Notes: a model not told the origin generated them from the sequence alone. A DNA stretch of 64,000 bases from Candidatus Omnitrophota bacterium (GCA_041649175.1 JBAZNR010000001.1:386332-450331); one strand, 5' to 3'. Positions 1-47,914 are shown, counted from the first letter of the stretch. Made by a program: numbers and translations.

Positions 1-2900
1 TGGAAATCATTTCTTTAAATGATGGTTGTTCGCTATAACGAGACACCGGAATAAATTCGAACGATAATCCTAAAGACGGAACAAAAGCGCCAAGCGCAGC
101 GCGCCCTGTATTGGCCGCGTCTTGCTTTAACATCTCTTCGGCGGTTTGAACGGCATCAAAGGTCGATTTAAATGTTTTGATCACCGCGCCGTCTTCCTGG
201 AAGGCCACCGGATTCATTTCGGCAATTTGCGTCACGTCGCCGGTAATGGATTCCATAAATAGAACCTGCGGCAGGCCATCGGCTTCTTTATCTTCGCGAA
301 CATCCAAATAATTTGGCAATCCGTAAGCCGGCAAATAACGCAACAACGCCTCGGCTTTGTAATAATTCGCCATGCGGTTTAAGCCAATTTCTTCCTTAAA
401 GAATTTAATGTATTCTGGATTTTCTTTTTGATCGATCTTTTCAGAGATCACGCGATGGATAGATAAGTCAACTTCATCTTTTCTGACGAGCTCATATTGA
501 TTGGTTTGATTATTGAAAACTAACTCGTGATATTTTAAGTTGAGGCCTTCCACCAACATTCTTTGGCCGTTGGATAGATCTTCCACCCAGCTGCCGCCTT
601 TTTGGCCTTTTTCGTTACGCACGGTCTCAATAACTACATTATGTCCCTGACTCATTAAATAAAGAACAAGCGCTAAGCGGTCTAAGTCGATGGAAGTAGA
701 AAGCTTCACCAGGTCATCCACATTGGTATTATTCATGATCAACGGCAGATCTTCGTTTGACGATTGATATTGACTTAAAAAGTATGCTAGGGCTGCTTCG
801 CGGATACGTTCATTACTGCTATCGCTCGCCAATACCTTTAAGGCGCTACCGCCGTGAACTGTTTGCATCAATGTATATCCATGCCCGAACGGACGGCGGA
901 ACGACACGCCATTTTCTCTGACATATTTTGTAAATCCTGATTCAGCATGGCGGTAACCTTCAAATGTGTGCTGAATGATGAACAGCATGTTTTCCGGGTT
1001 AAATCCGAAGAAGCGATAGTTAACAAATTCTTCCATGATCTGCGCGCCCGTCGCATCATTAACGTGAATAATAACTTTGGCATTACGGATAACTTCCGCA
1101 ATGTTAAGACCGTTTTCCCCGGCTAATTGCTCAAGCTCTAAGCGGTATTGGATCAAAAGGCGAGCACCTAAAGAAAAGTTCTGCGTGTTTTTAAATTGCG
1201 GATATGTTTGTTGCATATAAACTAGAAAGCGGTAAGCGACATATTCATCTAATTCTTTTTCACTAATATCATATTGCGCGTGCACGCCCGCCTTGATCAT
1301 CGACTCGGCGTCATACTTGGCTTTCATAATTTTTTCATTAAGCTCTTGCTTGGCCGCATCATTTAATTTTTCTTCCACATCCCATCCGGCCATTTCGGCA
1401 ACATCTTTTTGCATCAATTGATGCGGATTGAATAAATATTTGGCCCCGCCGCCTAAAATAGCCGCGGCACGCGTTGCCCCGCCGGCAAAAAGCATTTGAG
1501 CGATCAACCCGCCGGAGACCACTAATTGCTCAGCCTTTTGACGCCATTGGGTAAACACGGCACTTAAACGAAATTCGTTCAAGGAAACTCTATCGGCTGC
1601 TTTTAAACTATGCGGATAGCTATTCACTTTGGAGCCGTTAAAGTTAGTTCCGTTTTCGGTTAATTCCTGCAAATGGACGGGAACATAATTGGTGAAACTA
1701 TCTTGTGAACGGTAGGCGTGAGCCTGTGCTAAAACAGAAACCCAGCTGTCCCGGCCCGACCCAATGGTTGTTGCGGCCAGTAAAGCGTCTTGGCTTCTTA
1801 AATGATTCAAGGCATCGGGTAAATTCTTCGGTTCTTTAAAATCATGGATGATGTCGCCGTCACGTTTGAAGAATACCGCGTTGGCCTCAGCCATTTGCGT
1901 AATATCACCGGTCACCGCTTCTAAGTAGAGGAAACCGCCTTTGAAACGCAGATTATAAGGAAGGTCATTACGTAAGAGTTTGCGCAGGCTCTTAACTTGA
2001 TACAAAAGTCTGAAGGCATTATACGGTGCACCCAAACGGCCGGCTTCATCAATTAAAGCGGTTAATTCTTCGCTTCCCTTAACGTTGGATGTTTCAATAA
2101 GGAAATTCTTACCCGACTTGCTTCGCAAGGCATTGCCGCCTTTTTGTTTTCCCGGATTTTCTACCAGTTCGCCCACAATATCGTGGCCTTTGATTGTGAT
2201 CAGATAAATGCCGTAAGCTAATTTTTCAATATTGATAACTTCATCCACCAAAAATTTGGTTAAGTCATTGATACGGTGGCTTCCCATAAAGGCATTGCCG
2301 TCTAGCAGAGATAAAATATCTTTTTCACTATCGGCAACTTTCACGAGTTGGGTAAATTCTCCAACAACCTTAAGCTGCATAATGCCATAACCATGACCAT
2401 AGGGGATTTCCGGACTTTCGGCGGCGAAGATAAGCTGGCCGTCTTTTAAGGAATAGCCGTTTAAGGTCGGCTGAACGATAAAGTAAATTCTTTCCGGATT
2501 AAATCCGTAGAAATGATTTTCGGTGAAATCACGGACAATGCTTTCATGAACATCTTCATTGGTGTGGACAATGATGGTTTGACGCCCTAAAACGGCCACC
2601 GGATCAAGGTTAAATTCAACGGCTAATTTTTCTAAAGCCATACGATAAGCGATCAGTTGTCGCGGGCCCATGCCTAAACGGAATTGAGCCTCATCGACGC
2701 TAGCTAAGCCGGCTTCTTCGGCAAGTTCCCAAATATCAATGCCATACATAGGGCCACGGTTAAGGCGTGTGGCGGCCCCGGCGAAAATAAATTGAGGAAT
2801 ATATTGGCCGTATAATAAGGCTCTTTGGGCTAAGGTAATAAAGAAGTTATGGCCGGGTTTCTTTAAGAAATCGTCTAAAGAGAGGATTTCGGCCAAACTT
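1..2900 (-). other. Two tandem, mutually homologous modules of about 470 aa each with a sugar-nucleotidyl-transferase-like GGxGTR(L) signature (UDP-sugar pyrophosphorylase or NTP-transferase-like)
   Basis: Translated LLYGQYIPQFIFAGAATRL (about 2,760-2,820) and QMLFAGGATRAAAILGGGA (about 1,440-1,500). Both resemble the L-A-G-G-x-G-T-R-L NTP-transferase motif. The flanking blocks FYGFNPE..YGHGYG and FFGFNPE..FGHGYT repeat in the same order about 1.4 kb apart. The second module runs off the left edge. Confidence 0.4.
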
Positions 2901-5900
2901 AATTCGCTTGGAGCAATAGTGTCAAAGGCATTGATGCGGTCAATGATCTTATTAATGGCGGCTTCGGCGGCTTTAACAGCTTCTTCGTCTTTTGAGGCTT
3001 TGGCGCTATTGTATTGATTGATGAGGTTTTCTAATTCGGCTTTGATAGGTTCAATGAGGCGGGCAATGGTCGGAAGCAAATTGGCTTTTAGATCAGCCGC
3101 AACATTGTTCGGAGCAGACGTCTTTATAGCGAACCAGCCGCGCTCTCTGGCCAAGATGCCGAGGCCGGCGAGAACGATAAGGGCGCTAAGCGCCCCGGCA
3201 ACGATATTGGAAGCAAAAATGGCGCTTATCGCCCCCGCTACCATTACAATCGTCGCCATTACAGACGGCAATGTAAAGCCGTTGGCGGAGGAAGATAGAG
3301 AATTATTTTTATTATTAATCGGTGTGGTTTTAATAATCTTAACTCGTGCCGGAACATCAACTACCCACTTGGGCTCACTCCATTTTTCACTTTCAATCCA
3401 AGTCATATAGCTAACATCCCATTCCTTTTCAACTCCAAGATAATGCCCTTCTTCTCTATGGCCTTTTTCAGGAGAATACACAACTTCAAAGTTATGACCT
3501 TCTTCTCGAATTCTCAATGCTTCACGCAAATAATCCCACGCCAAGTTGAGAGGCAATGTTTTCTTTAAGATAGACAATACTTCAATGGCTAATTGAGTCT
3601 TTCTAATATTGTTCTCATACATTCTAAATATCTTTATATTATCTTCTGTTGATTCAATTTGATGTCTACCAAGAACACGTGTAATTTCTTCTATTTCTCG
3701 CGCATTATGCTTGTCTTTCGATATTGCAATGATTGCTTCAAAAACATATAAAACTCCATAAATAATTGGAGACAATGTGACTGAGAAGATGTATGCAAAC
3801 ACCATAAAGAATACCATCCATGCCCCCCTAGTTGGATCCGTGCTAGGATGACTAATATCATGATAAATGCCAAAGGTATAAGATATAGCAATAAATGATA
3901 ACGTTAAAATTACGAAGATTCTGCTGAACTTTTTATTGTCAAAGTTGTCACTTGAAAAAAGATAAGAATACAGGGCAAAATAAATAATTGCTACAAAAAT
4001 AAACGACACTACAGGATGGGCCAAAATTAATGTCCAAAATAAACTTAAAATACCACCTGCCGTTACCATCGCCATCATGGGCGGAAGGATGAAGCCATTA
4101 GCAGAAGTATTGTGAGGATCTTTATTAGCATCATTTTCTTTTGCCGGTAACACTTTCTTAATTAAACTCTTAACGTCGTTTATAAAATAACCTCGGCGGA
4201 TAGTTAATTCCATTTCAGCCTCCTTAGCAGATAATCCTTTGAAGAATGAACCGACAAGAATTCCGCCTAAGATCATCAAGAATGCGGCCGTTTTTGAATG
4301 AGAGCTGATCGTTTGTTGGAGGAGAGGAAGGATCTTGGTAGTGAACCACCATAATGTTACGCTAATGCCCGCTAAGAATATAGAGGCAGAAACTAATTTT
4401 GGCGCATCTTTCTTAATGATCATTCTAATTTTATTGCCGAGAGTAACTGGGATATTGTAAATCAACATTAACGCAAACCCTAAGAGGGTTAGCACAGTCA
4501 TAATAAATGTACCAGTCACATACAGATCAAAGTAATCTCTTGCTATTTTTAACTTGCTAAAAATCCACTCGGCCCATTTAAGCCATTTTACATTCACAAC
4601 TAAGGCATTCACAATACCTATAAAGGCATAAATAACGATTGTTCCTAAGATGGCATAATACTTATAGTCGCCAAAGAAGTAGAATCCTGCCGCTATTAAG
4701 CCCGCTGAAACTACGAGTGCAACAACACCTACTATCCAATTTCCTGCACCAAGCTTCTTAAAGAAATTACCAAAATCTTCTGTGAAATGTATTTTAGTCC
4801 ATGTCCACGCTCCAACTGTCGCCGGCGTAGAACCAGGATTTAAGATAAACGGAGCCATAAGAGCGGAAACAAGCATGAGAATAGGGAATAAAGACCAAAT
4901 AGCCGCCGGGCTTTGCCAGAGGAAAAGACCGCTGACCATTGCTAAGACAGCCGGAACGACCCACCCGAAACCAGGAAGCTTAATCTGAGAATATAAGTCA
5001 CCTTCTGTAAAAAGATCCTTAACGCCGGCAAGCCACATGAAAGGCAATCTATGTTCACGGCCGGTTCTGCGGCCTGTCTTAACATAATCACCGCTATTGA
5101 CCATGGCCTTCTTTTGACCGACAGAAAATGCATTGTAAACAAGCGACATATACACAATGGCCGCTTTAGGAAATACTCTTGCGAACGCTATAGATCCGTC
5201 AATAAACGTTTTCTCAAGAACCAATTGGAAATATCCGGTAAAGGTAATGGCCTGTGATAATAAAAGGCCAATGATACCAGCGGCTAATTCATCGGGGAAT
5301 GTAACGAAAAGACTGGCTCCAAATAAAATCACCACTATAACGTAAAGATTATTTTGGATGACCACAAAAGATTTTCTTAAGAAATAACCGATGGAAGCAA
5401 CAAAGTGCATAAAGGAACGGGAAAACCCGATAATGGACGAAGAATTATGCTGCGCGATTTCATACGATACGGCTTGTTCGCCGGCACCGGCACCGAATTT
5501 ATCAGAAATACCAAGTAACCCGCCATAAACACCTTCACGCGCTTTAGCCGCCTGCATAATTTCTCTATTAATGACTTTTTCTCCGTACATCGTCGCTTTG
5601 TAAGCGCCAAAAATATCTTCGTTAACCCACGGGGCACTTAAAAGGCCTAACTGACGGAAAGAAACTGTTCTGACAAAATCAGGATGCCCGTAATGATAAC
5701 GAATACCCATCCAGTTAAGCGAACGCTGAACCAATGTAGAGAAGGTATGATCACCAAAAGCGTGAACAGCACCGGCCGGCGTTGACACATCGGTAAAGAT
5801 ATCTTCAGGGAAACCGACGATCGCGACACGATTATCTTTAAATTCTTCCATCAGGTTAGGGGCTTTGAAAGTTTCTTCCAAATACATATCTTGATTCATA

Positions 5901-8900
5901 TCCATCATCTGAACAATTTCACCGCGAGTGAATCTAAATATATTGTTTTGGTTGACCGGTTTACCCTGCCCGGCCAAAGGCTTCGAAGATAGATAAATTC
6001 TTCTCACTTCAACAATTCTTCCCTTGCCTCTGTGATCGTTGAAAACAACAACAACTGTTTCTCCTGGTTGAGCCGGCCCTTCACGATACTCTAAAAGAAC
6101 ACCGGCATAGGTATCAACATCAGGGCTGTGATAATCGGTGTTCATATTCTTGTCGTCTCTAGGATTAGCTAAATAAGCGACTCTTAAGCCGGGATATTTG
6201 CGAAGCATATAGTTAACATCGTTGATAATTAACTTTTTGCTCTGGTCAGTGCTTTTTAGCCAATCGCCATACGGCTGATGGCCGACAACATATTCAAATT
6301 TTTCAGATACTTTTTCTTTTATTTCTTGTTCATATTCTTGTTTTGCATCCGTACTCGTAGAATCTATTCCTAAGCTTTCTGGTGTGGGGAAATTGACCTT
6401 AGCAAGCCATGTGTACATTTGATAATAATTCATAATACCGCGAATGGTACGGGCTAAAGGTTGATAGCGGTAGGAGACCCAAAGCCTTACCTCAATAATC
6501 AGATGGTCGTTTGTAATATCAAGTTTTTGTCCATATTGTAAGTTTTCTATGGCTTCAATATCTTTTTCAACCGCATCAACATCATCGGTTCCATATGTCC
6601 ATTTAAATCCAGCCTGATTGTATCTCAGGCTTTCGAATTCCCGACGTATACGGGCCTTAAAGTTTTCCCATTCATTAAGATGTTTGGTAATAAAGTACGT
6701 TAAAAGCGTCGCCTTAGTTTTGTAAGCTTCATTAATGGCATCATATTGCCCGACTGTTTTATCTGAGAATGGATACATGATCGGCTCATCAAAGATCGGT
6801 GTCGCAACGCTGAATAAATATAGCTTCTCCCAAATCGGCATTTGATCCATATCCATCAAGAAGGTGGAGAGAACAAACTGGATTCTTGCGCGAAGGCGTT
6901 GTGTTTCCGGGGCTTTGGAAAGATCCGGCCAACGAGTAACTGTTCCAGCTAAGAAATTATGTTCATCTATGCCATCAATAACAAATAACATTCTTTCTTT
7001 TTCTTCAATAGAGGCGAGGTCATCTTCCAAATACTGGCTGACGATCATGTTCCACGCTTTGGCAAAAGCAACGAGTTTTTCCTGTTCGGTAATAGCCCGG
7101 CGTTCTCTATCAGTACCAACAATAGAAGCAGGAACGATTTTCTCTTGGAATCCTTTAGCCGCCGCTTTAAATTTATCAATAACCGTATCGCCGCCTATTT
7201 TTTCAAGACCAATCCGGCCAAGCAAGGCATTAATAACGATAATACCAATCACAATGGCAGCCACAGCCCCGATAAGATAAAGCCAAGAGGAAGCAATCAA
7301 GCCGTGCACTCCGGCAATAAAGGCCGCTTTCCAAGGAGACAAATAAACAATACCCGCAACAGCCGCAATAAATGTCAGCGCTGATTTAACTCTTAAAGCA
7401 ATAGATGAAATGCCTTTGCCGCCCCAGCTGTTAATACGGTTAGCCCCGGTCCATTTAGCGATCCAGTACCCTAAGGCTCCTTCGATAATGTAGAAATAAG
7501 CGAATATATCCATAAGGAATATCATGAAGAAAATGGAGAATGTGATAGCGATAAGAATATACTGGCCGCCCGGAACTATTGGCCCTATTAGAGCCGTAAG
7601 CCGTTCCCACGGAATATTCCAGCTACTATTTTGCAGGATAATGAAAGCCTTAGATAACCAGCTCCAAATCAATACGTTCGTAAAAATCTTAGCCCCTAAG
7701 GTCAACACCATAACTAAAGAAGCACGGGCTTTACGGCCCAAGGTGCCATCCGGCGGATTATCTTTATAGCCTGCTTCGAACGGTACGGTTTCGCCATATC
7801 TTTGGTTCTTTAATGTATACTCTTGCTGATTGTGTCTATCAACAAACCAAATTGTGAAATAAGCAATAGCTAAAACACTTGTAGCAATTAAAGCGCCGAT
7901 AGCCCACGAACTAAATGCGATAACTCCGGTAAAATTCAAGCCGACCGCCGGAATACCGGATGTCAATCCGACAGAAGAAAGAATGATTGATCCGTAAAGA
8001 ACCGCAAAAATCTTCTTAAAGTTAACGATAACTCTAAACCAGCCTAAACGACCAAACTTAGATGTCTTGATGTCGGGATAAACTTTAGGAAGGATTTTAT
8101 TAACCGTGTCATTGCCATTAGCCAATTCTCTTTCAATTTCAGCCCGGCCACCGTTACGGTAAAATTTAATAAATCCAGGTGTTCTAAAATAACCTTCCAC
8201 ATCATTATGATGGATGGTCGCATATTTTGTTTTGCTCTTTGCTGACTCACTATGAGCAAAAATAATCCTGCTCCAAAGCGCCGCTTCAGCTTCAGCTTGT
8301 AATCCAAATTGATCATTACCGTTATTTAATAGTTCCATACCAGAGAAGAACCGATAGAAATCAAACGACGCTGTAACGTTGGCTAATTTATCTCCGGAAA
8401 GATTGATAAGATTATAAATGTACATCTCTCTTAATCCGTATTGGTCAATTTCTCTCAGCGCAGCTTCATAGTCGTCTGCGCTTAACACATCTTTCATAAC
8501 CGGAATAAACCAAACATGCTTGTATCTACGGAAGAATTCTTTTCGGATATCATCGATTGATTCACCGGAAAATAATCTTCGGCTTACTTCGGCTAACAAT
8601 AGATATTTGGCCTGGTCAACAACGCCGTTCTGGAAGCCATAAGATGGATAATTTTGAATTTCAGACAAGAAATTCTTAATTTCATCACCTGTATGTTTAA
8701 GAACAACTTGGTCAATAATATTTTTCTTAGGAAATAGAGATCTGAATAGTTGCTTGATCCAGGCGAGTAATTTACCGATGGTCATAACACCGGCGATATA
8801 AAGCGATATTAAAAGCAATATACCGCGCCAGATACCGATCTGGTTTAACCAATGCCAGAGTAAATGAGGCCTAATCTTATCAACTTGGTGATCGCCGACA

Positions 8901-11900
8901 TATGTATACTGCTGATCATAGACTTTTGAAACATCCATGCCTTCAGATTCACCGATAAGGATGACTGTTTTTTGATACATACCATCGGGTAATTCAAGCT
9001 CATACTCCTCGTTTGCCTGCTTGGCACCAATGATACTGAAATCAATATCCTTATAAACTTTTACTAAGTCACCATTTTCTAAGAAACTGAATACCGGTTT
9101 GCGATAAGAAGCGGTGGGATCATAAATGGTTGTTTCAACTCCGTTAACGGCAACGCCAAGTTGTTCTTTCATGATCTGCATACGAACAAAAGCATATCGT
9201 TCGGCTAAGAGGCGTCCACCGGGAGAATAAAGGACATTTGATTTGAATTTTGAATCGAGAACATGATACTCATTACCAACAATTGCGATCCGTGATCCAT
9301 CAGGGGTCGTCATAGACATTGTGAGCGGCCCCAACTTTTCTCTGGAAATCATGAACTCACGATCCAAGGTATCTTGATAGGCAAACGTAAACGCAGGATC
9401 TCGATCATTAGGGCCTTTATAGATTTCCACAAATCCAAGCTCACGGCCTTTTTCAACGACCATAACACCCGGCAAAAGATCTTCCGGCATGCGTACTGTG
9501 TCGGTTCCGCCGTTGGTAATAACTAAGGTCTGCGCTTCAAACCACCAAAGATTAAGGCCCAAATCGTTATTGGCGTAAATAGCGGCAATGTCACGGCCAC
9601 GGCTATCGTTAGGAACTAAATAATGGTAAATTGATCTTCCCTCGATAGAAGAATAAGCCCCATCAATATTTATTAATCTCGGCTTTTCTTCAATAATAGA
9701 TAATTGTGTCATCGGAGCGATACCGAGCTTATTCAAACCATCCCAAAGGTTTAATGTCGGATCATTAAATCTCCTGTTGGAAACATCGCTGAAGATACCC
9801 TCAACGCCCTGGTTGAATAATTGTCCGGCACTGATCGTTAATCCACGTTGTTGAGCTGCGGAATCAGATAATGTTCCAAAGGTAGATTTGACTTCATAAT
9901 CCGGAGTTAAGCTATAGGATCTTGTTAATTCACCCGTGCGAGGATCAAATTGTTCAGCAACAATGATCTCCAACACTCTGCCGAGTTCTATGCGGATCGT
10001 TATGAATTTTCTGGCTAAGTGGTCAAACGGAATGCGGTAATCGATGGTTTGAACGCCAAAGTTATTGGTCACGATGGTCGGCTGAAGAACAGTGTTTTCA
10101 TCAATGCCTAATGAACGAAGAGCTATGTTTGTTTCAGAGTTCTGGAAGACTTTTCCGGAATCAATCAAACCGGCTCTAATATTCTCACCTTGTTCGGCGA
10201 TCCAGGCCTTTGCCCAATTGGATTGAGGATCCGGACGATATTCAACAACGCGCTGGATAAATTTGGAATCTTCGTTGTATCTATCGGTCGCTCTCCAGTA
10301 ATAAATATCTCCGTTGATTTGAGCTAATAATTCGGTATCTTTCGTATATCCGACAGGAAGCTCGATAAATCCGATCTGCATATTTTTAACGTAACCATAA
10401 ACTTTATCGTATTCCGTTCTTTCCACAGGAGCATATCCGCCCCATCGATCAATTTCACGAAGATTGATAAACGTTTTGATAACGGTTGAATCGTTTCTTT
10501 GAATATCATAGACACCGGTCACATTGTATTGCCAGCCGCTATGTCCGTTTTGACGGCTAATAAATAAGGAATCAACGCCAAGATCTCTCGAGGAATCAAG
10601 CGATGTTGCATAAACTTCATCCCAGGTGATCGGGTTGACATGAATATCTTCTTGCTGAACGGTGTGTTGGCTACGAACGAGATTGCCTTTACCTGTGAAC
10701 GAATCAACCTGTTTAAATTGGCTTAATTTATTATGGATATACCAAGTTCTATTGTCAGAAGTCGTGCTGTCAGTGACACTGAACCAATTTAAGGAAATCA
10801 GGCCTTTAGCGGAATCTGCGGCCATTTTCTCGATAGCTTTCGGTAAGAATTCGAACGGAGCCGGATAAGGTTCTCTATCTCTTCCATTAACATAGTGGAG
10901 ACTGACAACTTCATTACTCTTTTGTCTTAAATCTAATTTACGAAGGCTTTCAGGATATCGATGATAGATAGTTCCTTCGGGGCCGATTTCCATCGCGAAA
11001 TAATTATCATGAACCCAGTTCATGAACGCCACGCCCTGACGGCCAAGCTCTAATGGAGCTTCTTTGTAGAATTTACCGGACGGTGAGGTGTAATTGGCGA
11101 CGGTGGTGCGATAAACAGGGTCGCCATTTGCATCAACTCTATCTAAGACAATGCCCTTTAAGCGGCCATTGGTTCCATCCACTAAAGCCTGCAACATCGG
11201 TTGTGTGACAGCAATGGAGCTTCCGCGAATAACCCCAAATCCTCTGACATAGCTTAATTCACGCTCGATCGTCGCGATATTGCCTTCGACAATGATCGGA
11301 TAAGCGGAACGTAATTCACTGGATAATTCACTGCCGCGTTTTGGCGTAATAACCATGGTGCGGCCGGTTTCATCGCCAATTTTGATCGGATATGTTTTGC
11401 CTTTATATTCCACGTGAATATAGTAGTTGCTGGAATCATCACGGGTAATACCGGCCGCTTTTAATTCTTCTGGTTTCATAAACGTAAGCGGTTTGCCCAG
11501 ATCATAAACATCACTTGTCACCGCACGCGGCGCTTTTCCGTCGAAGAATATGGCATAACCGGCGTAAGAGCTGTCAGTTAAAGCCGCTAAGTGTTCTCTA
11601 ATCACTCTAGGCCCGTAGGTAAAAATATCTCCGTCTAAGGTTCTATCCGCCGTAACGGTGTAGAATGAATCCGGAACGGTAACTTCTAATCTGGATGTGT
11701 CAGCTTGCGTCTTCATTTCAGCCGGCATAATTAGCGTGTCGCTTACAACCGGCGCAACAACAATGTTAGGAAGTTCTGTAATATTTTTGGATTTTCCACC
11801 GACTTTAACAATTGTCTTTTCAACAGATGCACCGGGAATAACTTGCCCATTGTTAAGATCGGCTGTCACTCTGGCACCGGCGGAAACATCACCATTATCC

Positions 11901-14900
11901 CGATAAGCGGATACGCTGCCGCGCCAATGGCTATCGAAGGCTTGTCCGACGTTAACATGAACGCCTTTAACCGGTGAAGCTTCTACCATCCAGGCAGGTT
12001 TTCCATCCACAAAACTAAAGGTTCCCTTAAAAGATTTGTATTGAATTCCGGCTGTCGTTCTGTCGAGCGTTTTTCCGCCTTTAAGATCAGCCGCCTGTTC
12101 AACACTGATGGTGATAGGGCCAAGATCTAATCCGGCACCGGCAACGCCATGAAGTTCTTTTGTTTTTCCCCAAAGATCATCGGTGCCAAATTGTTCGCTA
12201 AGAATAGAAAAGTTTAAAGTTAAGTTATCCGAAGCCTGAAGCTTGAAGGTCGCCTTCTCAAAACTATATTGATCTTGGGCTTTTAAGGCAACGTCGGATC
12301 TGTTGACAAGAATGCCCGTAAGACCGTCAAAAATTTCGATACGAGAATTAACATTGCCTTCGGATTGAGCAAGGCCGGCTTCTAAAATAACATTGGTGCG
12401 CCCGCTGGTGGAAATATCCAAAATACCGTTTAAGCCGGTAATGCGGTCCAGATCACCCTCATATTCTTCAACGCCCTGGCTTTTTTTGTTAATTTTTAAT
12501 TCATTGGAACGATATGTTTCGGCTTGGAAAATACCGCTAATGCCTAAATAAACGGTATTGGATTTATTATTCACGCCGATATTCTGGATCAAAACGAAGT
12601 AACGGCTGGTTTGTGTTTCAGTGTACCCATCGATAGGCCACTCATTGAAGCTGTAGCTTTGCATTTTTCCGGCGATGGTCTTGGAAATCAGTGTCGCTTG
12701 TTTATTGGTCAGGTCAATACCGACTAAGGCGTATTTAGAACCCATTCCAAGCGCTTCCGGCTGGACCTGGCCGACAAAGGCGTTGACACCGCCAACACCT
12801 AAGCTTTTTAAAATATCAAAAGCGGCGATCTGATTGGACGCGGAAACAATGGGTTTACCATCGCTATCGGTAAGCCGGTTAATAACAGATTGCCAAACTT
12901 GAGGAGCGGTTTGATTATTGAGGGTGAATTGATCGAGGTTAACCAGAGGAACAACTTCGCCTAAGACGTGTAAATTGCGGCCGACGCGAACAACCGCCGG
13001 AGGGGCGTGTTCAAGAGTCGCTAAATATTCTTCGAGCGCTTTGACCAGATTTTCTTTTTCCCCGATGGATAATGTATCGTTGGCATTGATCTGAACGGCA
13101 ACGCGCTCTCTTATTTCGCCTAAGATGCGGTTATATTGTTCATTGCCTTTTAAATAGCTTTCAAAAACGGCGGTAGCGGCATCATTGGCTTCTTTGGAAT
13201 TTTGTTCGGCATTATGAACCGCGCGAATACCCTGCATTTGCTGACGAGTTCCTTGAGCATGATCGCCTAAACTGCTTAACATATTTCCGAGCGGATCGCG
13301 TCCGGCGCCGGTGCGGTCATTGATGCGTTTAATGGATTCTTCTATTTGTTTGGTCCAATAATCTTTGTATTCTTCAACGCTGGCAGAATCAGAACCGATA
13401 TGAGAGAAGATATCATTGAACGCGTATAACCGTCTTAACAATTCAAGGCGCTCACTCTTATAGTTAAGCTGATTGATGTAGAATTCCAATTTTCTCACAA
13501 TAACATCAATAATGGATTCTTCGTTGGTATTGCCCGTCTGGAACAATGAATCTGCTGTTAAGTCCGGATATCCAAATTGGATGATATGCTCCGCTTCGCG
13601 TTCGTAGTTATGGGCGAGGCTGCCGGCTAAAGATCTTACTTCGACTAAAGAATCAGGCAGGCTGTCTCTTAAGGCATTCCAGAATGCAATGCTTTGCGGA
13701 ATGCTTTCTTCAACCGCCGGGTCAAGCCTGTCATTGTAATAATCTCTGGTTTCAGGGATCGTGTACACGCCAAAGGGACGTTTGCTATCTGCCGGCCAAG
13801 TCAAAGGAGAGATAGGAAGCAATAAGTGGTAGCTAACGGTCGTATTATTTAAGGCGTCGTTGATGATACGAATGGTATTTTCTTTCCAGGCGATATAGTC
13901 AATTTCAATGTCTCTTTTAACGGTTAAGATCTCTTGAGGCATTTCAAAGAAGGCAGGAGCAACAGCGTATTCCATGGCATCATTAGCCACTCTGTCTCTT
14001 TGTCTTTGAACAATACCAATACCGACTTGTGTATTGTGGATCATATCCACTGTTAATTGATGCCATGCGCCCTGTTGTCCGCGAGACACGATTTCTTGGC
14101 CTTGCCAGAATGGTAAGGCTTCATTAATACGCTGGACAGCTCCCATGACCGGCGCGTTAGGCGTTTGATCATCTTCATCAAAGTAACGAAACGCGGACGC
14201 AATGGAATCTTCCGGCATAAGGATATTGGCATAAGATAAGCTGTCGCCTCGTTCAAGCCAGATATTAAGCGTATCTAAATAACCAAAATGACGGGCTAAA
14301 TCAGCATTTGCTGAATCAAGTGTTGTATCGCTCCAGCTATAAATATCAGAGATCGGGATGATCGTTCCTTCATGATTCCTAAGGTGATTTAAGTTCTCTA
14401 TGAGGATATCGGTTCTATCAACATCAGCTTCGAGGCTGTCGAGATCAGAGGCCTTAATAATTCCTGAGCTTGAATCCATGGCCGCAAAGTATTCTTGGCG
14501 TAATCCGCGAATTGCATTGTCCGCGCCCAATGTATCGGCTTGGACTCTAATATCAGCCAATAAAGAATCGAATGTCATCTCACGAGAGGTCGCTACTTCG
14601 TGAATGAAATGATAGATATTTAATTTGGAGGAAAGCTTCACTTGTTCTTCCGGTATGGCTCTCATGATCTCATTAAAGCTAAGCCCTTGTTTTCTTAATC
14701 CTTCTTCAATGTCATTTGAGCGCAACTGAATATAAGCAGAATCGGCTTCTTGAGAAAGAAGTTGAGCATTATCAAATTGGCCGCGAAGCGAATCAATAGC
14801 GGATCTTTCTACCGCTAATTGTCTGGCTAATTGTTCTAATGAAGCGCTGTTCAATCCGGCTAAAGATAAGACTTCATCTAATTTTTCTACATCCGCTGAC

Positions 14901-29900: not shown

Positions 29901-32900
29901 GTTTGTTCGCTGTAGCCTAAATCTTGCGTGATGGTAACAACATTAGCGCGGGCATCTTGCGTGAGGTTTGTTTGCGCTGAGGATAAAGACGGCATTAGTA
30001 AGGCTACCGTCATGAGCCCGGCAACGGCTAAAGTTTTGAGTGTTCCTACTCTAGTTGGCTTGGCTATTGCGCTGACTGTTGGAACTTTCTGCGCTGCCAT
30101 ATCTCGATATTTCGTCCTGATCTGCTCAACCCTGGAATATTCAATGCTCGGGATCTGGCTTATCCCGGCTTGATCCAAGAGAAATGCCCGATGATGTCCG
30201 TCGGACAAAGCGACAAATCCGTCCGGTAATCGAGAAACGATGACAGGATTTTCTCGTGTAAATTCAAGAAGTCGATTAGCATTATTTTTGTCTGATAAAA
30301 ATAGGCCGACCATTTCTTTCATGGTCGCATCTGGGGAAACTTCTAAATTTAAAACGTGCGTTAAAATATCTCTGACCTGGTTGGCTGCAACTCCTTGATT
30401 TCCGATCTGGCCGTTTGGTTTTTTCATATCAGCGATGTTACTCAAAACCGCGCTATTGGCGATCTCTTGCAACATGGGAGAAACCCAATCCGTTGACAAT
30501 TCAAAGCTTTGATTAACCAAAGTAGCCCGAACGGTTTCGGGAAGCTTGCTAAGCTCAACATAATATCTTCGTCCGCTCGTGGTGGTTATAATACTGCGGC
30601 CGTGATCATCAACGCGTACTTTTCCGCCTTCTTGCGTTAAAACAGCTCCGTTTAAATCAGCAATTGCCATTGTTGACCATTGCCGGCCGTTCGTGTGAAG
30701 GGATGAAACTTGAATTTCTGTCGAGATAACAGGTTGAATATTTGTTTGCGGCAACACGGGTGTTTTACTGACGGCGATTTCGTGAGAAATTCCGAAAATG
30801 GCATCGGCGCTCTTAGCCTGATTAGAAACCTCAAAAGCGTCTTTTGCGCCCATAGCTTTTGCGGATTCTCCAGCGAGTCTACGGCCGATACGGGCAAGCT
30901 CGGCTAATTCTTTGATCTCGTGAATAATCACTTCATTGGACTGAATTTGCGGATTGGCCGCCCAAACAGCGCTATCGATAAAAATGATATTTCCTAAATT
31001 GCGTGCGGCCCCATGTCCGGCGGCTTCAAGCCCATTGACGCTAACAATTTGATAAGCATTTTGCGCATCTTGCGCTCTATTGCCATGCCAGCCGACGGTT
31101 TGATGAGAATTACTATCAACAAAACTTGATAATGCGGCTGCTCCGTTAAATTGTCCGTTTAATGCGCCGGCGCGATCACCGGACGGCGTGTTCCCGAGGC
31201 TTTGATTGACTAAGGCAACGCGGACAGGTTCAGGAAGTTTTTCAAGCTCAACATAATATCTTCGTCCATTAGCCATGGTGAGAATACTACGGCCTTGATC
31301 ATCAACTCTCACGTTACTGCCTTCTCTCATGAGCGTTGCTCCGGTTAGATCAGCCGCTTTTAATGCTGCCGGTTTATTACCTCTTCCAAGAGATACGACC
31401 GGAATCTCAATATTAGAATCAATGCCGGCCATATGATCAATAGCCGGAAGGCCTAAATCAGTGCCGTTATGGCCGTTTATGCCATTTAAGGATCCTGTTG
31501 GATCAAAGGGGCGAACTTCCGGCATACCATTTTCTTCCATGCCGGGCAATGAAGTAATGGCAGGTGAAGCATCTGCTAAATCAGGAATATTTGTGCCGAG
31601 ATCTTCCGCGCGCGGTAATTCAGCCGGAGGTAATCCATTGTCTGCTCCCATATTCGAAGCATCAACAAGAGGTTGCATAACGAGCTGTTCAACTCTGGTT
31701 GTTTCAACGGCAGATGCAGGTTGAGCCGATGGCATCGCGGGCTGTTCCACTCTCGGCGAAGGTGAAGCCTTAGGAGCTTTTGCTGAGACAAGCGCGACTC
31801 CGTCCTCATTTCGAATAACTTGTCCATACGCCGCGATCTGCCCAAAGATATCATTAAATCCGTGATCAAGCCCGAGTTTGGCGCCGAGTTCGTGAATAAG
31901 CATTTCGCTTACTTCTTCAACACTTCGCTCTCTTCCGGCATTAAAATCCTGACGGGTTAAATAAAGCCGTCCACCTTCTTTAAGCCAAGTTCTTTGCCGT
32001 TCGACAGTGCCATCTTCTTTTTGCACCAAAACATCCACATAACGCTGCCTGTCTCCGGATTTATTTTCGCCCCAATGTGCGTCTTGGACCATACTCTCGC
32101 CAATCACAAGATGTGACGCATCAAGTAAGAAAATAATTCCTTCGCGATTAGGATCAGACATCACTTGAAGTTCGCTGGAAATTCTTGCCAATAATTCCGG
32201 TAAATTTTGCCCTCTATTTTCCGCAAATTGTTGTAAACTTTCTAAGGCCCTTGTCTCGTCTTGATCTAATGGCGCTCCGCTTCCGTTAAGCGCACCCATA
32301 AATCGATTTAAACGGTTTAATGTCGTTTCAATAACCGGATGGCTTAAATCTAATTCTTCGGCTCTACCTTGATTCATTAAGTTGGAAATACGTCCATGGG
32401 CACGCGCTTCCATAGCCCGGCCAAAATTTCCTTCTTGATCATGATTGCTACCTGAAGCATTGACCGGGTTATCACGCTGTAATTGCGCATCGGCAACTTC
32501 ATCTACCCCTAAAGGAACAAAACCCGGTTTAGGCTGAACATCCGCCGACACTGGTGTTTCTACTAATAATCTCGGAGCAGAACCAACGGCGTTGGCAACC
32601 GCTTGAGGAGCAGCGCCGGGAATTTGAGATGGGTTAAATGTAGGTGCTGTCGGAGTACTTGGTGTTGTTTGCGAGCCATCAGGCGCGCTCGGAGCTGTTG
32701 GGCTGGCATAAGGATTTGTACCTCTAAAAGAAGGAAGTGATGTACCGGAATTTCTACCAAATCCACGAGCAACACTACTGAATTTTCTTGAACTTCCGCC
32801 GTTTTTATCAAAACCTTCCTGCAGGGCTTCAATGCCAAGGTTATACAGCGAGAAATTCGGATCATTCATGTCGGGTGTGCCGAAATTCATTTGGTTTAAA

Positions 32901-41900: not shown

Positions 41901-44900
41901 AGATTGGTATCTTTTTCCGTTACCCCATATTTTTCTTGAAATCTTTTAGATAATCCGCGGCCGCCATTGGTGAGATCTAACCAAACTCCTACCTTCCCGC
42001 CTTCTTTGGCTTGCGCGTAATCCACAACACCCCAAGAAACAATGCCAAGCCCCATCCATCCGCCAAAGCCCATTAAAGCGGCGTTTGTTTGCCCGGGTTC
42101 GATAATCGCGTGGCGCGTCAATGGCTTTTCTTTTCCGTCCGGGCCTAAGCCTATTCTCACAAATTTATCTTGAGGAAGCCCTAAAACAGCTATTGTTCCT
42201 TTGGCAAATTTTTCTCTTTGTTCTGCTGATTTGGTAGCGAGCCTGGCGGATAATCCAGCAACGCCTTCCACTAAGGCACCGGTCGTATACGTTATATTTT
42301 GTACAGACGCCTTAGCCAGCGTGGCGTGCATGTTATTAACGTAATAACTTTGCGCAAGCGCGCCGGGTAAAGCAATTAACTGCGCTTCATATTGCTCTTT
42401 CAAATAAATTTCTTTATTTCCATCGTAGGCCTCATATTTTTCTCTGATTTCCGCCCTAGATAACCCTTTATCTTCCGTTTCATTGAAACGGCGCATATCT
42501 TCCTTCATCCGGCGCGACTCACGCACATAATCAATGCCCATACCGGCTGCGGCCGTGACGGAATTAATATAATGATCAAATCCGCTAATGGTCCACTTTT
42601 GGCCGTTTTGAGGAATAGAGCCTTGATACGTATAAAAATCATTGGACATTCTGGCTAAATCGCCATAAGAAACCATGCCAAATTTTTGGAAGAATTTTCC
42701 GACTGTGGAAGCCACTTTAGCTATATCACTTTTTTTACCCCACACCGCTTTTTGCTTATCTATTGTCGTATCATCTTGGAGGTCCTCTACTTTTCCAAAG
42801 GCCCCCATATAAGCTCCGTGCGCAATAGCGGTAGCAAAGAAAGCAATGGTCAAAAATTGTGTAGCTGACATTCCTTTTTTTCCGGTCTCCGCATTGGCAA
42901 CATTATTTTGATACGCTTGATCTAAGGCGAAAGCAAAGAGTGAGCCAACCATGCCCTGTCCAAAAGGAGAGGCCATAAACCGAGAAAGACTATCCCAAAC
43001 AGATGAATCTTTGCTAGAACCACTCGTCCCCGCTCCGAAGAAATTCGTATCAAACCCATTCAAAGCATAACGGCTGCCGGTTTCGCCTAAAACGCCAATG
43101 GCTTCCACCAAATAATAATGTGTTGAAGGGTTAACGGGTTTCCCGAAGAAAAATTTATTTTTAGTAAAATACCATTTCATCAATGTCCCGGTACCTTGCG
43201 TGATCAAACCAGGTGTCAGAGATTTAAATTGATCGAAAGCCGCATGCAAAGGATTATTCGAAAGCTCTATCTGACCTCTTGGATTGTCTATATTAAAGTC
43301 GCCTTGTAACCATCCTCTTTCGAGACCCATCTTAGACCCGGCCCAATCCATACTGACCGTGGTGCCGGCTAAAACCGGAGTTGAAATCCCGGTCATCAGA
43401 ATGTTGGAAACACCTTGGCGGAGAATATCGTTACCAATGTTTTTAACGAGAGGCTGGATAATATGCTTGTCGGCTAAAACTTCTATGCCGGCTTTAGCCG
43501 TGCCATAAAGAAGGCCTCTGGCAAAACCACCACCAAAAGCCGATAAAGCACTACCCTGCGGACCCATCTGCCCTAGCATTGCTTGCAACTGTGTTGGGCC
43601 GGTAAGATTGCCCGAATTCCATGCAATCTGCTCTCCAACCATTGAGGGAGTAACGCCTGACAACCCAGTAGATTCCAATGTTCCCCCGGTTAATTGTTGA
43701 AATTGCGTGGGGCCTGTGAGATTACCCGCTTCCCATGCGGCTTGTTCAGTTAAGATATTTGGATTTTTTAAAATTTCTTTGGAAGCCGCATCAGCGCCTG
43801 CTTTAGCACCTAAATTATTTGCGTACGCGCTAACCCCCATGGACACACCAACCGTAAATGCCGTCGAAAAGATAAAAGCACCGGTTTCATTCCACCAGCC
43901 CTTCATCACGCCGATCTGTCCTAAGGTACTTCCCAAACTTCCTATCCCGTTGCTTATGGCAAAAGCTCCGGGATTAAATCCGGTGGAAGCAAAATTGACC
44001 AAACTCATGAGCGCTTGCGTTCCCACAACGGTCCACATGTCGCTACGGCTAAAAGCTACTCCCGGTAAAAAGTCATGGGCGCGGCTGTGCCACTGAGAAC
44101 CCCAAACAAAGGCTTGAGTAGCTTCGCTGACAATTTCCGCTTTTTCTGATTGGACAATACTTGGCGCTAAAACGAACCCGGTAGATTGTTTGGCAAAATC
44201 TTCGCGCGAAATGGTAAGGGACTTTCCAATATCGGTGTACGAAACCTCTTTGTCATCAATCGCTGTTACAGTAATGAAATGTTCAGATTTGAAGTTGGCG
44301 ATGAATGGCGGTCTTAAATTGAAAATCTCTTCAGCCGGTAAACGAACAGCTTGGACATTTAATCCATAAGCATTGGCGATCTTATTCAAAGCAAAAAGAG
44401 AGGTCTTAAGCTTCGGCTCACCCGGCTCAATAATGTTGTTCAAAAGGTCCACTGCTAAAGTAACCACCGAAAGCTCTTCTAAAGCCACTTCAATGTCGCG
44501 GCTCATGAGAAGATCTTTAAGGGCGTAAACACCGCAGTTTAAAGGGTGAATACTGGGATCGCGCAGCCAAGAATAAATCTTTTTGATGCGGCTGTCGGTC
44601 ACGGTTGTTTCTGACTTTATTTCAATGGTTCTGTCTTCTAATTCCGGATTGGAGACATTTTGACGGGGCAGTCTGAGGTTGATTTGGGGCTTTTCTTTGT
44701 AGGCGATTTGTTTTAAAAGATTCTCAACGCTTCCGGCAATTTGGGCAGAAGCGACTTCTTCGGGAGAGGCATCGGGGCTAACGGCATTGACAGCTTTGTC
44801 TTTCCAGAGAACAGCCGGATTATAGTTAAACGCCCAGCTGATCTGGTCAGGAATAAAAATGACAACAATGAGCAAGGCCACCGTTCTGATCCAGGCCTTA

Positions 44901-44965: not shown

Positions 44966-45104
44966 TCTGTTCTCCATATGGTTTTGAAACACCATTGTCC
45001 AATCTGGAATAAACTAAAATGGCACCATTTTTACCAAACGCCAATGAGCTGAAAAAATCCATAAAATGAGAAATCTCCGGCAACAAATCCGGAGATCGGG
45101 ATAT

Positions 45105-45133
45105 AACATAGCCAATAAGACTATTATTGACAA
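45105..45133 (-). promoter_or_regulatory. Candidate sigma70-type promoter for the giant gene on the minus strand (TTGTCA-17-TATGTT)
   Basis: The -35 box tgacaa lies at 45,128-45,133 and the -10 box aacata at 45,105-45,110, both read as reverse complement, with a 17-bp spacer. The site is about 140 nt upstream of the ATG. Pattern match only. Confidence 0.25.
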
Positions 45134-45220
45134 ATTCAATAATCCGTGGCTTTTTAATTGTAAATGTTTTCACTACCCTTCTCCGTGGCTTGTTGGCTTC
45201 GGTCGCCCCCAACCGAAGCA

Positions 45221-45261
45221 TCAAAAAAGGCTGCTGAAAACGTTTGACGTTTTCGGCAGCC
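45221..45261 (-). terminator. Rho-independent terminator for minus-strand transcripts. It could end the tad operon with a long 3' tail or end a small RNA unit.
   Basis: A 14-bp stem ggctgcTgaaaacg / cgttttcGgcagcc (45,229-45,261) is followed on the minus-strand RNA by UUUUUU, seen as aaaaaa at 45,223-45,228 on the plus strand. Confidence 0.6.
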
Positions 45262-45360
45262 CAGGAGGGTTACTTAAAATTCCGACACTTCTTTTTCCCG
45301 TGGCTTTGCGGGCCTCATTTTTACTTACTTCCGGCCCACCTTTATCGATCCGTCAATTGC

Positions 45361-45393
45361 ATTATAAATATAACATTGTAATAGGATGTGTCA
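45361..45393 (-). promoter_or_regulatory. Candidate promoter (TTGACA-15/16-TATATT) reading toward the terminator at 45,221-45,261. Together they would define a candidate small RNA or leader unit of about 130 nt.
   Basis: On the minus strand TTGACA sits at 45,388-45,393 and TATATT or ATATTT at about 45,366-45,372. The downstream RNA holds only a 14-codon ORF (MRPAKPREKEVSEF). Confidence 0.2.
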
Positions 45394-45795
45394 ACTTTTT
45401 ATTTCCTTGATTTGGAGCAAAAGTGTCTATTTTTCAATGACTTATGAAATAAATAAAAAATAATTTATTTTTTTTGGAAATTATTCCCAAAAGCGAATTT
45501 TTCTTATGAAAATGTTTTAAAAAATGTTTAATAACATCCGGTGTTTGAAATAAAAAATTGACGGTGTTTTTTTATTTTACGCTTTCCGTCATGATCAAAA
45601 AAGAGAGAGAAAATGAGAAGAACGTTATGAGAAAAACTATACTTCCGTCGGAATACTACACTTTTCCGACGGAGAAATTGTTTTCCGCTTGATGATCCAT
45701 TTTCGTTTTTAGTCAGGATCTTTCTGGAAATCTACGACAAGAAAAATGAACTGATGCGAAAGGAATATATTCGTAATCCATGAACGCCTGCGTGG

Positions 45796-45895
45796 ATAAA
45801 TTCGTGGAAATATTGCACGAATTTATATAGATTGGACATTAAATAAATATGATTGGACATTAATCTCTGTGTAATTATTCTAATTTAATGTCCAA
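45796..45895. promoter_or_regulatory. Cluster of likely protein-binding motifs just downstream of tadC. An 11-bp perfect inverted repeat ATAAATTCGTG-9-CACGAATTTAT lies at 45,796-45,826. Three copies of TTGGACATTAA follow, two direct (45,832-45,842 and 45,853-45,863) and one inverted (45,885-45,895).
   Basis: Read directly from the sequence. A degenerate copy, GATTGGACAAT, lies 20-30 nt upstream of the giant-gene start codon at about 44,993-45,003 on the minus strand. Confidence 0.35.
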
Positions 45896-45909
45896 AGATA
45901 TATATGAAT

Positions 45910-46815: not shown

Positions 46816-46837
46816 TATTTTCTCACCAGTTAGTTAA

Positions 46838-46966
46838 TTTCCAATAACCAAATGCCAATGACCAGATAAACTTCAATAACCAATTTTCTAATTTCCAAAC
46901 GTTTTTAACATTGATTATTGATAAATTGGGAATTATCTGGATGTTGAAATTTGGTCATTGGTTATT
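46838..46966 (+). repeat. MITE-like intergenic repeat, copy A, about 130 bp, with imperfect terminal inverted repeats (aataaccaa..caatgacc / ggtcattggttatt)
   Basis: It fills the whole tadB-tadC spacer. Its first 100 bp are about 88% identical to copy C at 52,069-52,165 and it is the reverse complement of copy B at 47,915-48,040. The shared core is ccaaacgtttttaacattg. Confidence 0.6.
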
Positions 46967-46969
46967 ATC

Positions 46970-47827: not shown

Positions 47828-47914
47828 GGTACTATTTTTGCTTAAAGCCTTTCAAAAATCAACTTTAATATGGAAAATTAACTTTGCGGGTTGTGGGGAT
47901 GCATTATGAGTTTT

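Follow-up and report, generated by a model that had tools for sequence, protein, structure and literature searches.

A Candidatus Omnitrophota minus-strand gene of at least 15,190 codons with a C39 peptidase head and a predicted FKS-type GT48 module

The 64,000-nucleotide (nt) stretch of DNA analyzed here (Candidatus Omnitrophota bacterium, GCA_041649175.1, JBAZNR010000001.1:386332-450331), which at its full length is referred to as the window, carries on its minus strand, from position 44,965 to position 1, what is almost certainly the 5' 45 kb of one genuine protein-coding gene that spans at least 15,190 codons and belongs to the giant-gene class of Omnitrophota. The encoded protein begins with a predicted C39 cysteine peptidase, contains an M23-type peptidoglycan endopeptidase domain and a predicted FKS-type GT48 beta-1,3-glucan synthase module, and its gene lies directly 3' of a Tad-like pilus locus. 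Our overall explanation, which joins this identity and architecture to a proposed mosaic machine of the cell surface anchored in the inner membrane of its producer, is one in which we have good confidence, weighted to identity and architecture; the surface or host-contact role that forms part of it is offered tentatively.

A single frame is open over 45 kb

A six-frame stop scan revealed a minus-strand frame without any stop over positions 1-45,013, corresponding to 45,013 nt or 15,004 codons. The second-longest open stretch in the whole window amounted to 3,162 nt, and inside 1-45,013 none of the other frames stayed open for more than 582 nt. From the base composition, stop triplets are expected at about 5.8% of minus-strand codons and, by our own arithmetic on the same composition, the probability of encountering 15,004 stop-free codons by chance is about e^-898. 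Three in-frame ATGs are found at 44,995, 44,977 and 44,965. The last of these has a GGAG about 8 nt 5' of it, and its product, MDIKDK..., agrees with the consensus start MDxK of the head family described below. Counted from this ATG, the giant open reading frame (ORF; 1-44,965, minus strand) comprises 14,988 codons and is cut by the window start. Amino acid (aa) numbers of the giant protein refer to the ATG at 44,965, and the features of the protein are given with their window coordinates on the minus strand.

A codon model trained on 14 neighboring genes favored the giant frame over both shifted frames in 29 out of 29 consecutive blocks of 500 codons, in each case by more than 200 log-likelihood units. 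Genes in the neighborhood end with TAA, TAG and TGA and therefore the genetic code is standard; stop-codon reassignment, which had been considered as a candidate, was ruled out by the same use of all three stop codons. Promoter-like and terminator-like sites within the ORF showed no excess over shuffled sequences (39 observed versus 43.6, 25 versus 30.0, 21 versus 21.7, and 20 versus 25.3). Also, searches against Rfam (gathering thresholds) and tRNA scans returned nothing within the giant gene, and a tandem-repeat scan found none inside it. The sole internal duplication detected by self-BLAST relates aa 14,097-14,394 to aa 14,597-14,950 with 28.6% identity over 364 alignment columns (116-2,677; no domain assigned) and falls into the last ~1,200 aa of the window part. 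Because there are no tandem repeats and one internal duplication at the protein level, a mis-assembly driven by repeats is unlikely.

An independent Logan assembly of run SRR8542065 was 100% identical to the window over the comparable 10,998 nt. The Logan gene call for the giant ORF is 15,190 aa long and leaves the end of the contig still open, and therefore the frame remains open for at least 607 nt past window position 1. When the last 400 aa of the part in the window were compared with Joint Genome Institute (JGI) metagenome contigs, no match and thus no 3' extension was obtained. The giant protein itself is absent from the protein database, where the closest match to its GT48 region is 51% identical.

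An earlier reading of the sequence alone had proposed one giant gene that reaches past position 1 and has at least 14,900 codons in the window. Our results agree with this proposal, as stops are absent, codon usage is uniform, one good start has its own ribosome-binding site as well as a promoter-like site, internal promoter-like and terminator-like sites do not exceed those of shuffles, and 14,988 codons were counted. In-frame stops that would divide the region into ordinary genes are missing from 1-45,013, and the one in-frame stop that had been placed near 10 kb does not exist in the six-frame scan. It had also been correctly noticed that the 24 minus-strand ORFs listed in 1-45,224 all lie outside the giant frame; none of them exceeds 113 aa, and no end coordinate is congruent to 1 modulo 3. 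The giant ORF is missing from that list because the listing omits ORFs that run off the source. Reading raw sequence alone can thus find a giant gene that is hidden by ORF lists and fragmented assemblies.

The locus belongs to the giant-gene class of Omnitrophota

Four neighboring proteins are exact NCBI entries of 'MAG: Candidatus Omnitrophota bacterium' (MAG, metagenome-assembled genome), all on one contig of 1,225,647 nt; they include MFA5059276.1, MFA5059279.1 (locus tag WC676_01450) and MFA5059292.1. Similarly, the N-terminal head and the GT48 module both have their best homologues among proteins of Omnitrophota. Giant genes with the same head and the same upstream pilus locus have been described (West-Roberts et al., 2023; 10.1101/2023.11.21.568195), so that the link to the giant genes of Omnitrophota, which the sequence-only reading had drawn by inference, proved right. 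Its statement that proteins of this size are extremely rare in bacteria is overstated for this phylum, as ORFs larger than 20 kb occur in 77 of 116 Velamenicoccia and in 20 of 23 Omnitrophia genomes (Seymour et al., 2023; PMC10066038). In a corpus from 2026, 3,650 proteins reach 10,000 aa or more, with a maximum of 147,155 aa (10.64898/2026.06.07.730766). This class of genes has been known since 2022-2023 and the present locus is a further example of it, not a new phenomenon.

The likeness to Omnitrophota giant genes, including those of the 'Archaeovorin' type, extends from the phylum to the N-terminal C39 domain beside a signal or anchor sequence, the many transmembrane segments, the few recognizable domains, the poor conservation and the presence of peptidase and glycosyltransferase modules. 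It also comprises the locus directly 5', which resembles type II secretion system (T2SS) and Tad loci and contains a secretin, a GspE-like ATPase, two GspF-like proteins, RcpC, Rotamase_2 and genes with class III signal sequences (more than 10 genes in the class). There are also differences. The set of West-Roberts et al. (2023) was limited to genes larger than 90 kb, or at least 30,000 aa (10.1101/2023.11.21.568195), whereas at least 15,190 aa are documented here. The giant ORF exceeds the 20-kb threshold of Seymour et al. (2023), and the 90-kb threshold lies beyond the sequence in reach, in which at least 15,190 codons are seen. Neither SecA_DEAD nor any methyltransferase, glycoside hydrolase or NUDIX domain gave a significant match in the part of the protein encoded in the window. 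For the SecA family, neither the searches of fifteen slices of about 1,000 aa against Pfam (E<=1) nor a PDB search of the window part gave a match. West-Roberts et al. placed the SecA domain in the 3' part of giants (10.1101/2023.11.21.568195), and a SecA-like domain may sit in the 3' part beyond the window. From the domain set reported for Archaeovorin, GT48, C39 and M23 are present in the window part of this incomplete gene, Methyltransf_25 reached only E=0.23, and neither a glycoside hydrolase nor a NUDIX domain was seen. The sequence thus does not allow us to assign the gene to the Archaeovorin subtype with confidence, the gene being incomplete and SecA, NUDIX, methyltransferase and glycoside hydrolase domains not being found in its window part. 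A Dockerin-type giant protein was ruled out, given the absence of Pfam matches of that type and the non-repetitive sequence.

The main texts of West-Roberts et al. (2023), of the 2026 preprint and of Seymour et al. (2023) do not mention a GT48 module, an M23 domain, a depletion of cysteine or a leader motif. The recurrence of a GT48 module in giant genes, the near absence of cysteine and the shared leader motif, all described below, may be new.

A conserved head with a predicted C39 peptidase defines the family

The conserved head of the giant protein (aa 1-400; 43,766-44,965) consists of a basic N-terminal tail, a transmembrane anchor at aa ~25-45 and a C39 cysteine peptidase domain at aa ~120-290 (44,096-44,608), which matched Pfam PF03412 with 34.8-38.5 bits at a cut-off of 22. 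In an alignment of 18 sequences Cys144 and His229 were invariant and Asp245 was conserved in at least 90%. An AlphaFold2 (AF2) model had predicted local distance difference test (pLDDT) values above 90 over aa ~120-290, and Foldseek matched this model to the peptidase domain of PCAT1 and to LahT150 (6mpz) with a TM-score of 0.70. According to alignment and model, the head is a C39 peptidase of papain-like fold with an intact Cys/His/Asp triad, and its activity is predicted.

Fold and triad are shared with the C39 domains of PCAT and bacteriocin exporters (PCAT1, LahT, ComA). However, in the present case there is no fusion to an ABC transporter, a single N-terminal transmembrane anchor precedes the C39 domain, the positive-inside rule puts this domain outside the cytoplasm, and no double-glycine substrates were identified. 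The idea that the head cleaves the giant protein at many double-glycine sites was tried and found unsupported, since leader-like motifs are not enriched (2 found versus 0.8 expected). GG dipeptides are even depleted in the giant protein (72 versus 100.6 ± 8.6 in block shuffles), which is curious beside an N-terminal peptidase of the double-glycine type.

A search with 330 aa of the head returned 463 cluster representatives at E<=1e-3, 95 of them at E<=1e-30. Among these representatives the head is nearly always N-terminal, and match lengths reach up to 7,820 aa, many being cut by contig ends. Named matches are Omnitrophota proteins annotated as 'C39 domain-containing protein, partial'. From metagenomes, 80 related loci bearing this head (L020-L099) were fetched. 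Downstream DNA for 2,000 aa or more was available in 38 loci, and in 37 of these the head-led ORF reaches the end of the fetched DNA. Of the 50 loci that extend 4 kb or more upstream, 47 have T2SSF genes there on the same strand. The similarity to all 80 relatives ends sharply at aa ~390-418, and nothing beyond aa ~418 in the remaining 14,500 aa (aa ~400 onward; 1-43,765) found a match in the 80 loci, 38 of which offered a downstream ORF of up to 3,300 aa. Among the head-bearing relatives, the head is the only conserved part of the giant protein, and the family is defined by head and synteny, the body being a hyper-divergent mosaic. The locus thereby adds a cleaner anatomy to the class: a C39 head of about 400 aa and a fixed pilus locus define the family, and the body past aa ~400 shares nothing detectable with the 80 relatives.

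A predicted FKS-type GT48 module in a bacterial giant protein

The region of aa ~11,350-13,750 (3,716-10,918) is occupied by an FKS-like GT48 module composed of a helical accessory region, six transmembrane segments, the glycosyltransferase (GT) domain and some 11-13 further transmembrane segments. Its catalytic GT-A domain (aa ~12,630-13,213; 5,327-7,078) matched Pfam PF02364 with 249.7 bits, the cut-off being 37.2, and yeast FKS1 in the PDB with E=7e-39. Essential residues of FKS1 have been named in a review (2025; PMC12715860). E851, K1082, N1085, D1102-x-N1104 and E1221-D1222 of FKS1 are conserved in the module, and Y849 is replaced by F. Hydrophobic segments number 6 before and 11-13 after the GT domain, as compared to 6 and 11 in FKS1 (PMC12715860).

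An AF2 model of aa 11,990-13,189 (pLDDT 75.7; predicted TM-score 0.79) could be aligned with the cryo-electron microscopy structures of FKS1 and FKS2 (about 1,260 columns; E=2.7e-29; TM-scores 0.53-0.56). On the strength of this structural alignment, the helical region and the six transmembrane segments before the GT domain are therefore FKS-like as well. In a profile-profile comparison (hhalign) with eukaryotic FKS, the GT domain and the C-terminal transmembrane region aligned, and the region upstream of the GT domain was not detectably similar. Sequence and model together indicate that the FKS-type GT48 beta-1,3-glucan synthase module is complete, its catalytic residues being intact and flanked by transmembrane bundles on both sides; the module is probably active.

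In comparison with FKS1/FKS2 and the plant callose synthases (CAZy GT48), the module shares a Pfam score far above the cut-off, the UDP-glucose-binding and catalytic residues and the arrangement of 6 plus about 11 transmembrane segments, and its predicted fold superposes on FKS1/FKS2 over the accessory region, transmembrane segments 1-6 and the GT domain. In contrast to these enzymes, the module is bacterial and embedded in a giant ORF, its identity to eukaryotic sequences is ~24-30%, there is no Rho1 partner, the upstream region is dissimilar at the level of sequence profiles, the bacterial sequences fall outside the sampled eukaryotes in a neighbor-joining tree, and the product is one predicted from sequence. 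The literature that was searched treats FKS-type GT48 as an enzyme of fungi and plants, and literature queries on GT48 in Omnitrophota or bacteria in general, as well as on the run SRR8542065, gave no result.

Among species representatives of GTDB, the module was found in 16 genomes, namely 11 of Omnitrophota, 3 MAGs labelled 'Planctomycetia/Planctomycetales' and 2 of Endomicrobia. The ORF fills the whole fetched locus in 13 of them, with up to 7,831 aa, and the GT48 block is conserved and colinear across all 16. Colinear similarity between GT48-bearing giants is limited to this module of about 2,000 aa, being weak upstream and absent downstream. Stand-alone forms exist, too. L004, from an Omnitrophota single-cell genome, has 2,470 aa, and the bacterial P0007 (2,446 aa) shows a weak GH72-like match and adjoins genes for a sugar nucleotidyltransferase (NTP_transferase) and a PilZ protein. 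The GH72-like match and the nucleotidyltransferase neighbor of P0007 are the sole indirect hint that such a module would produce beta-1,3-glucan from UDP-glucose. In the neighbor-joining tree (605 columns) 178 of 200 bootstraps separated six presumed eukaryotic sequences from the whole bacterial set, with a mean distance of 1.7 between bacterial and eukaryotic sequences versus 0.9-1.0 within each group; sampling in this tree is thin, and three of the six 'eukaryotic' sequences come without a source name. The occurrence of an FKS-like synthase in bacterial giants bears on coat building by ultra-small episymbionts and on the origin of eukaryotic GT48.

Composition and further modules of the body

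The long stretch of aa ~400-8,390 is rich in G, S, T and N and contains four isolated hydrophobic segments; Pfam, PDB and homology searches of this stretch yielded no domain, PDB relative or homologue. A PDB sequence search with aa 1-5,000 had no match either. A relaxed Pfam search (E<=1) of the fifteen slices gave noise only, except for a weak M50 match, and NCBIfam had no match beyond C39 and M23. Only 2 cysteines occur in 14,988 aa (0.013%), as compared to 1.98% in the neighbors, and one of the two is the catalytic Cys144. Other GT48-bearing giant ORFs are also poor in cysteine (0-0.69%), with none in the 7,545 aa of L008.

About 33 strongly hydrophobic segments, grouped in three blocks, were counted with a crude criterion (19-residue Kyte-Doolittle mean of at least 1.7). 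One of these blocks (aa ~8,390-8,960; 18,086-19,798) is polytopic with about nine hydrophobic segments and possibly represents a module like M50 or site-2 proteases. M50 peptidases have HExxH in a transmembrane helix and NxxPxxxxDG downstream of it. In the present block, HEYGH at aa 8,474 (19,532-19,546), which is the one HExxH in the window part of the protein, lies within a hydrophobic stretch, and the block also holds the motif NLIPLIPGKD and, about 120 aa after HEYGH, NLIPLIPGKDASG. On these motifs the block may be M50-like. No homologue of aa 8,350-9,350, the region from this block to M23, was detected at E<=1e-5.

The M23 (LytM-type) peptidoglycan metalloendopeptidase domain follows at aa ~9,169-9,295 (17,081-17,461) and matched Pfam PF01551 with 84-85 bits at a cut-off of 28.7. 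Its zinc motifs HxxxD (H9187-GGI-D) and HxH (H9268-L-H) are intact, and PDB chains were matched with E-values down to 1.3e-16.

Two internal segments, read from the sequence, resemble signal peptides. One is located at aa ~4,965-4,997 (KPTR-VGTLKTLAVAGLMTVALLMPSLSSA|QTN; 29,975-30,073) and the other just before M23 at aa ~9,083-9,113 (RRHPR-LTSVFLGLSYLTGMLVAMPSDVFA|AEQ; 17,627-17,719). Both have the n-h-c layout and an AxA-like site as in cleavable Sec signal peptides, and they may have been left over from secreted proteins that became fused, or may act as internal signals for export or cleavage.

The pilus locus and the leader of the giant gene

All ORFs with family matches in 45,910-64,000 are on the minus strand. 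From the giant gene outward, two T2SSF genes are followed by three genes for cysteine-rich proteins, small ORFs including two pilin-like ones, a gene for an 827-aa protein, DUF192, a ParA/MinD-T2SSE ATPase and a secretin. The two T2SSF genes (45,910-46,815 and 46,970-47,827; Pfam PF00482; exact match to MFA5059276.1) encode TadB/TadC-like platform proteins. The cysteine-rich proteins, without Pfam or NCBIfam matches, have 172 aa with 17 Cys (48,049-48,567), 1,049 aa with 47 Cys (48,571-51,720) and 529 aa with 21 Cys (52,229-53,818). Two small pilin-like genes (55,400-55,801 and 55,850-56,095) encode a class III signal peptide (Pfam PF04021). Further on, a fusion ATPase (59,927-62,092; Pfam; exact match to MFA5059292.1) joins a ParA/MinD-like, that is TadZ-like, part with a TadA-like T2SSE part, and the secretin (62,101-63,720; Pfam) combines a pilus-formation domain at its N-terminus with TonB_C at its C-terminus. 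Just past the end of the window follow the genes for RcpC and a Rotamase_2 peptidyl-prolyl isomerase (locus L017). Among the 35 related loci that reach 9 kb or more upstream, each of the T2SSF genes was found in 33, and the cysteine-rich proteins of 172, 1,049 and 529 aa in 29, 32 and 29, respectively.

The tad and secretion neighborhood that had been recognized from the sequence alone is thereby confirmed in its components, which are RcpC, the secretin, the T2SSE ATPase, pilins with class III signals, two T2SSF proteins and Rotamase_2. This locus resembles the Tad (tight adherence, type IVc) loci of adherent and predatory bacteria in the TadB/TadC-like T2SSF pair, the TadZ-like and TadA-like ATPase, the RcpA-like secretin with its N-terminal pilus-formation domain, RcpC and the small pilin-like genes. 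It differs from them in that TadZ and TadA are fused, the secretin carries TonB_C and three conserved cysteine-rich proteins are interposed. All components of the Tad set were found except for a prepilin peptidase, which was not seen in the window.

Between the T2SSF genes and the giant gene lies an AT-rich gap with the leader (44,966-45,909, minus strand; 944 nt), which contains a promoter-like site, copies of AAGCCACGG, a hairpin and the GGAG. The promoter-like site (45,394-45,367; TTGACA-16-TATATT with an upstream TG) is the best of the 60 kb scanned (window positions 1-60,000). AAGCCACGG occurs six times in the window, always on the minus strand, versus 0.38 times expected. Three copies are located in the leader of the giant gene (45,298-45,306, 45,183-45,191 and 45,144-45,152) and a fourth in the leader of the pilin genes (56,479-56,590). 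A hairpin with a T-rich tail follows in the giant-gene leader (45,097-45,072). Both leaders carry AAGCCACGGAGAA and the same hairpin stem GATCTCCGGA...TCCGGAGATT, succeeded by a T-rich tail, which suggests that the pilin genes and the giant gene are co-regulated. Such an element common to the giant gene and the pilin genes could explain how so expensive a transcript is controlled.

Over 78 related loci, the 700 nt that precede the head showed a 12-fold enrichment of GCCACGG, and a leader block of about 80 nt was 72-79% conserved in the closest relatives. Terminator-like hairpins were found in the leaders of 15 of 79 related loci, a 4-fold enrichment in AT-rich DNA that gives modest support. 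The leader had no match in Rfam. A further motif, TTGGACA(T/A)T, is found about 35-45 nt before the start codon and again at the start itself (ATGGACA), both in the window (44,960-45,010) and in leaders of relatives (L021-L027 and L046). Over 79 related loci TTGGACA was 12-fold enriched in the interval from -90 to +8 relative to giant ORFs, being present in about 10% of loci. Inverted copies of this type of motif (AATGTCCAAT, twice) are found near the T2SSF end of the gap, at 45,830-45,900.

Proposed role and alternative explanations

In the mechanism that we propose, the giant protein would be inserted co-translationally into the cytoplasmic membrane of the cell that produces it. Anchoring in the inner membrane of the producer, rather than export of the whole protein, is favored because a processive GT48 enzyme needs its GT domain in contact with cytoplasmic UDP-glucose and its transmembrane channel in that membrane. 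Long soluble stretches would come to lie outside the membrane, where they could form a coat or a contact surface, and the protein would act as a mosaic cell-surface machine in which GT48 extrudes glucan and M23 cuts peptidoglycan, either the cell's own or that of a host. The fast-evolving N-terminal arm at the surface might serve as a coat or in contact with host or prey, and its hyper-divergence would fit a host-specific contact. A coat or contact surface has been proposed for Velamenicoccus (PMC10066038). The giant protein would cooperate with the Tad-like pilus that is encoded directly 5' and is probably co-regulated. The product may also be trimmed by the head peptidase, possibly with help from the M50-like block and signal peptidase.

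Several points weigh against this explanation. About 90% of the giant protein is without a detectable homologue or domain, and the role proposed for the surface arm is read from position and composition only. The topology obtained from the crude hydropathy scan is not self-consistent, as it gives an even number of transmembrane segments between M23, expected outside, and the GT domain, expected inside. The match of the M50-like block to PF02163 (E=4.5e-4, 20 bits) stays under the cut-off of 27.2. Bacterial beta-1,3-glucan (curdlan) synthases that are known are GT2 enzymes. Translation as one chain is inferred from the sequence, and the window covers the 5' part of the gene only, so that C-terminal domains, including the SecA-like domain of most giants, would lie outside it. 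Finally, the shared leader motif with its hairpin, an observation on sequence, may represent a regulatory or attenuator element common to pilin and giant genes.

A possible alternative, on balance rather unlikely and in part overlapping with our own explanation, is that the single chain is a polyprotein precursor which the C39 head, the M50-like block and/or signal peptidase would cut into independent enzymes and surface proteins. Three protease-type modules are present in the one chain, two internal segments resemble Sec signal peptides of the cleavable type, M23 directly following one of them, GT48 exists elsewhere in the stand-alone form (L004 and P0007), and the same idea has been raised for C39 and S8 heads (West-Roberts et al., 2023; 10.1101/2023.11.21.568195). 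However, a recurring linker or cleavage motif was not seen in the giant protein, and both the number of double-glycine leader-like motifs (2 versus 0.8 expected) and the depletion of GG dipeptides (72 versus 100.6 ± 8.6) speak against a precursor of this kind.

A more far-reaching version of the surface machine can be formulated, in which a deep bacterial GT48 clade, consisting mostly of modules within giant genes of Omnitrophota and Endomicrobia, would have been the source of the eukaryotic enzymes or derived from eukaryotes by an ancient transfer. The protein would then be a self-contained coat-builder that extrudes beta-glucan for adhesion to a host, and the leader element shared with the pilin genes (AAGCCACGG repeats plus terminator-like hairpin) would gate its costly transcription. 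Taken as a whole, we regard this version as improbable.

Still more doubtful, indeed very unlikely, is a secreted effector, which would be exported as a whole by the adjoining Tad/T2SS-like machine into or onto prey to act as a lytic toxin. Such a function would agree with the tight and conserved synteny with the secretin, ATPase and platform locus, with the lytic M23 domain and with the role in degradation of prey cell walls that has been proposed for giant proteins (10.1101/2023.11.21.568195; PMC10066038). In contrast, the approximately 33 hydrophobic segments, among them those of an FKS-like fold with 17 or more transmembrane segments, favor a stable place in the membrane of the producer. 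Moreover, to our knowledge, Tad systems assemble pili and the secretins of T2SS let through proteins that are folded and soluble, and a polytopic membrane protein exceeding 1.6 MDa is not among their substrates.

That the frame is an artefact of mis-assembly or chimeric joining, or a chance or antisense frame, is barely conceivable: metagenome assemblies may join or break giant genes, and both errors have been described (West-Roberts et al., 2023; 10.1101/2023.11.21.568195), but chance would produce such a frame with a probability of about e^-898, all 29 blocks have uniform codon usage, real domains lie in one frame at aa 144, 9,200 and 12,700, two independent assemblies agree where compared and both have the long ORF, other genomes carry homologous ORFs that are colinear and exceed 7,000 aa, and repeats that could mislead an assembler are missing. 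Our preferred explanation remains that of a surface machine which would be anchored in the producer's inner membrane.

Other features of the window

The cysteine contents on the two sides of the leader differ extremely, with 2 cysteines in the 14,988 aa of the giant protein versus 17 in 172, 47 in 1,049 and 21 in 529 aa of the adjoining conserved proteins. The only notable tandem repeat of the window is located inside the gene for the 827-aa protein of the pilus locus (58,296-58,449) and consists of about 10.8 copies of a 12-nt unit with the plus-strand consensus CAGCTTCAGGAG.

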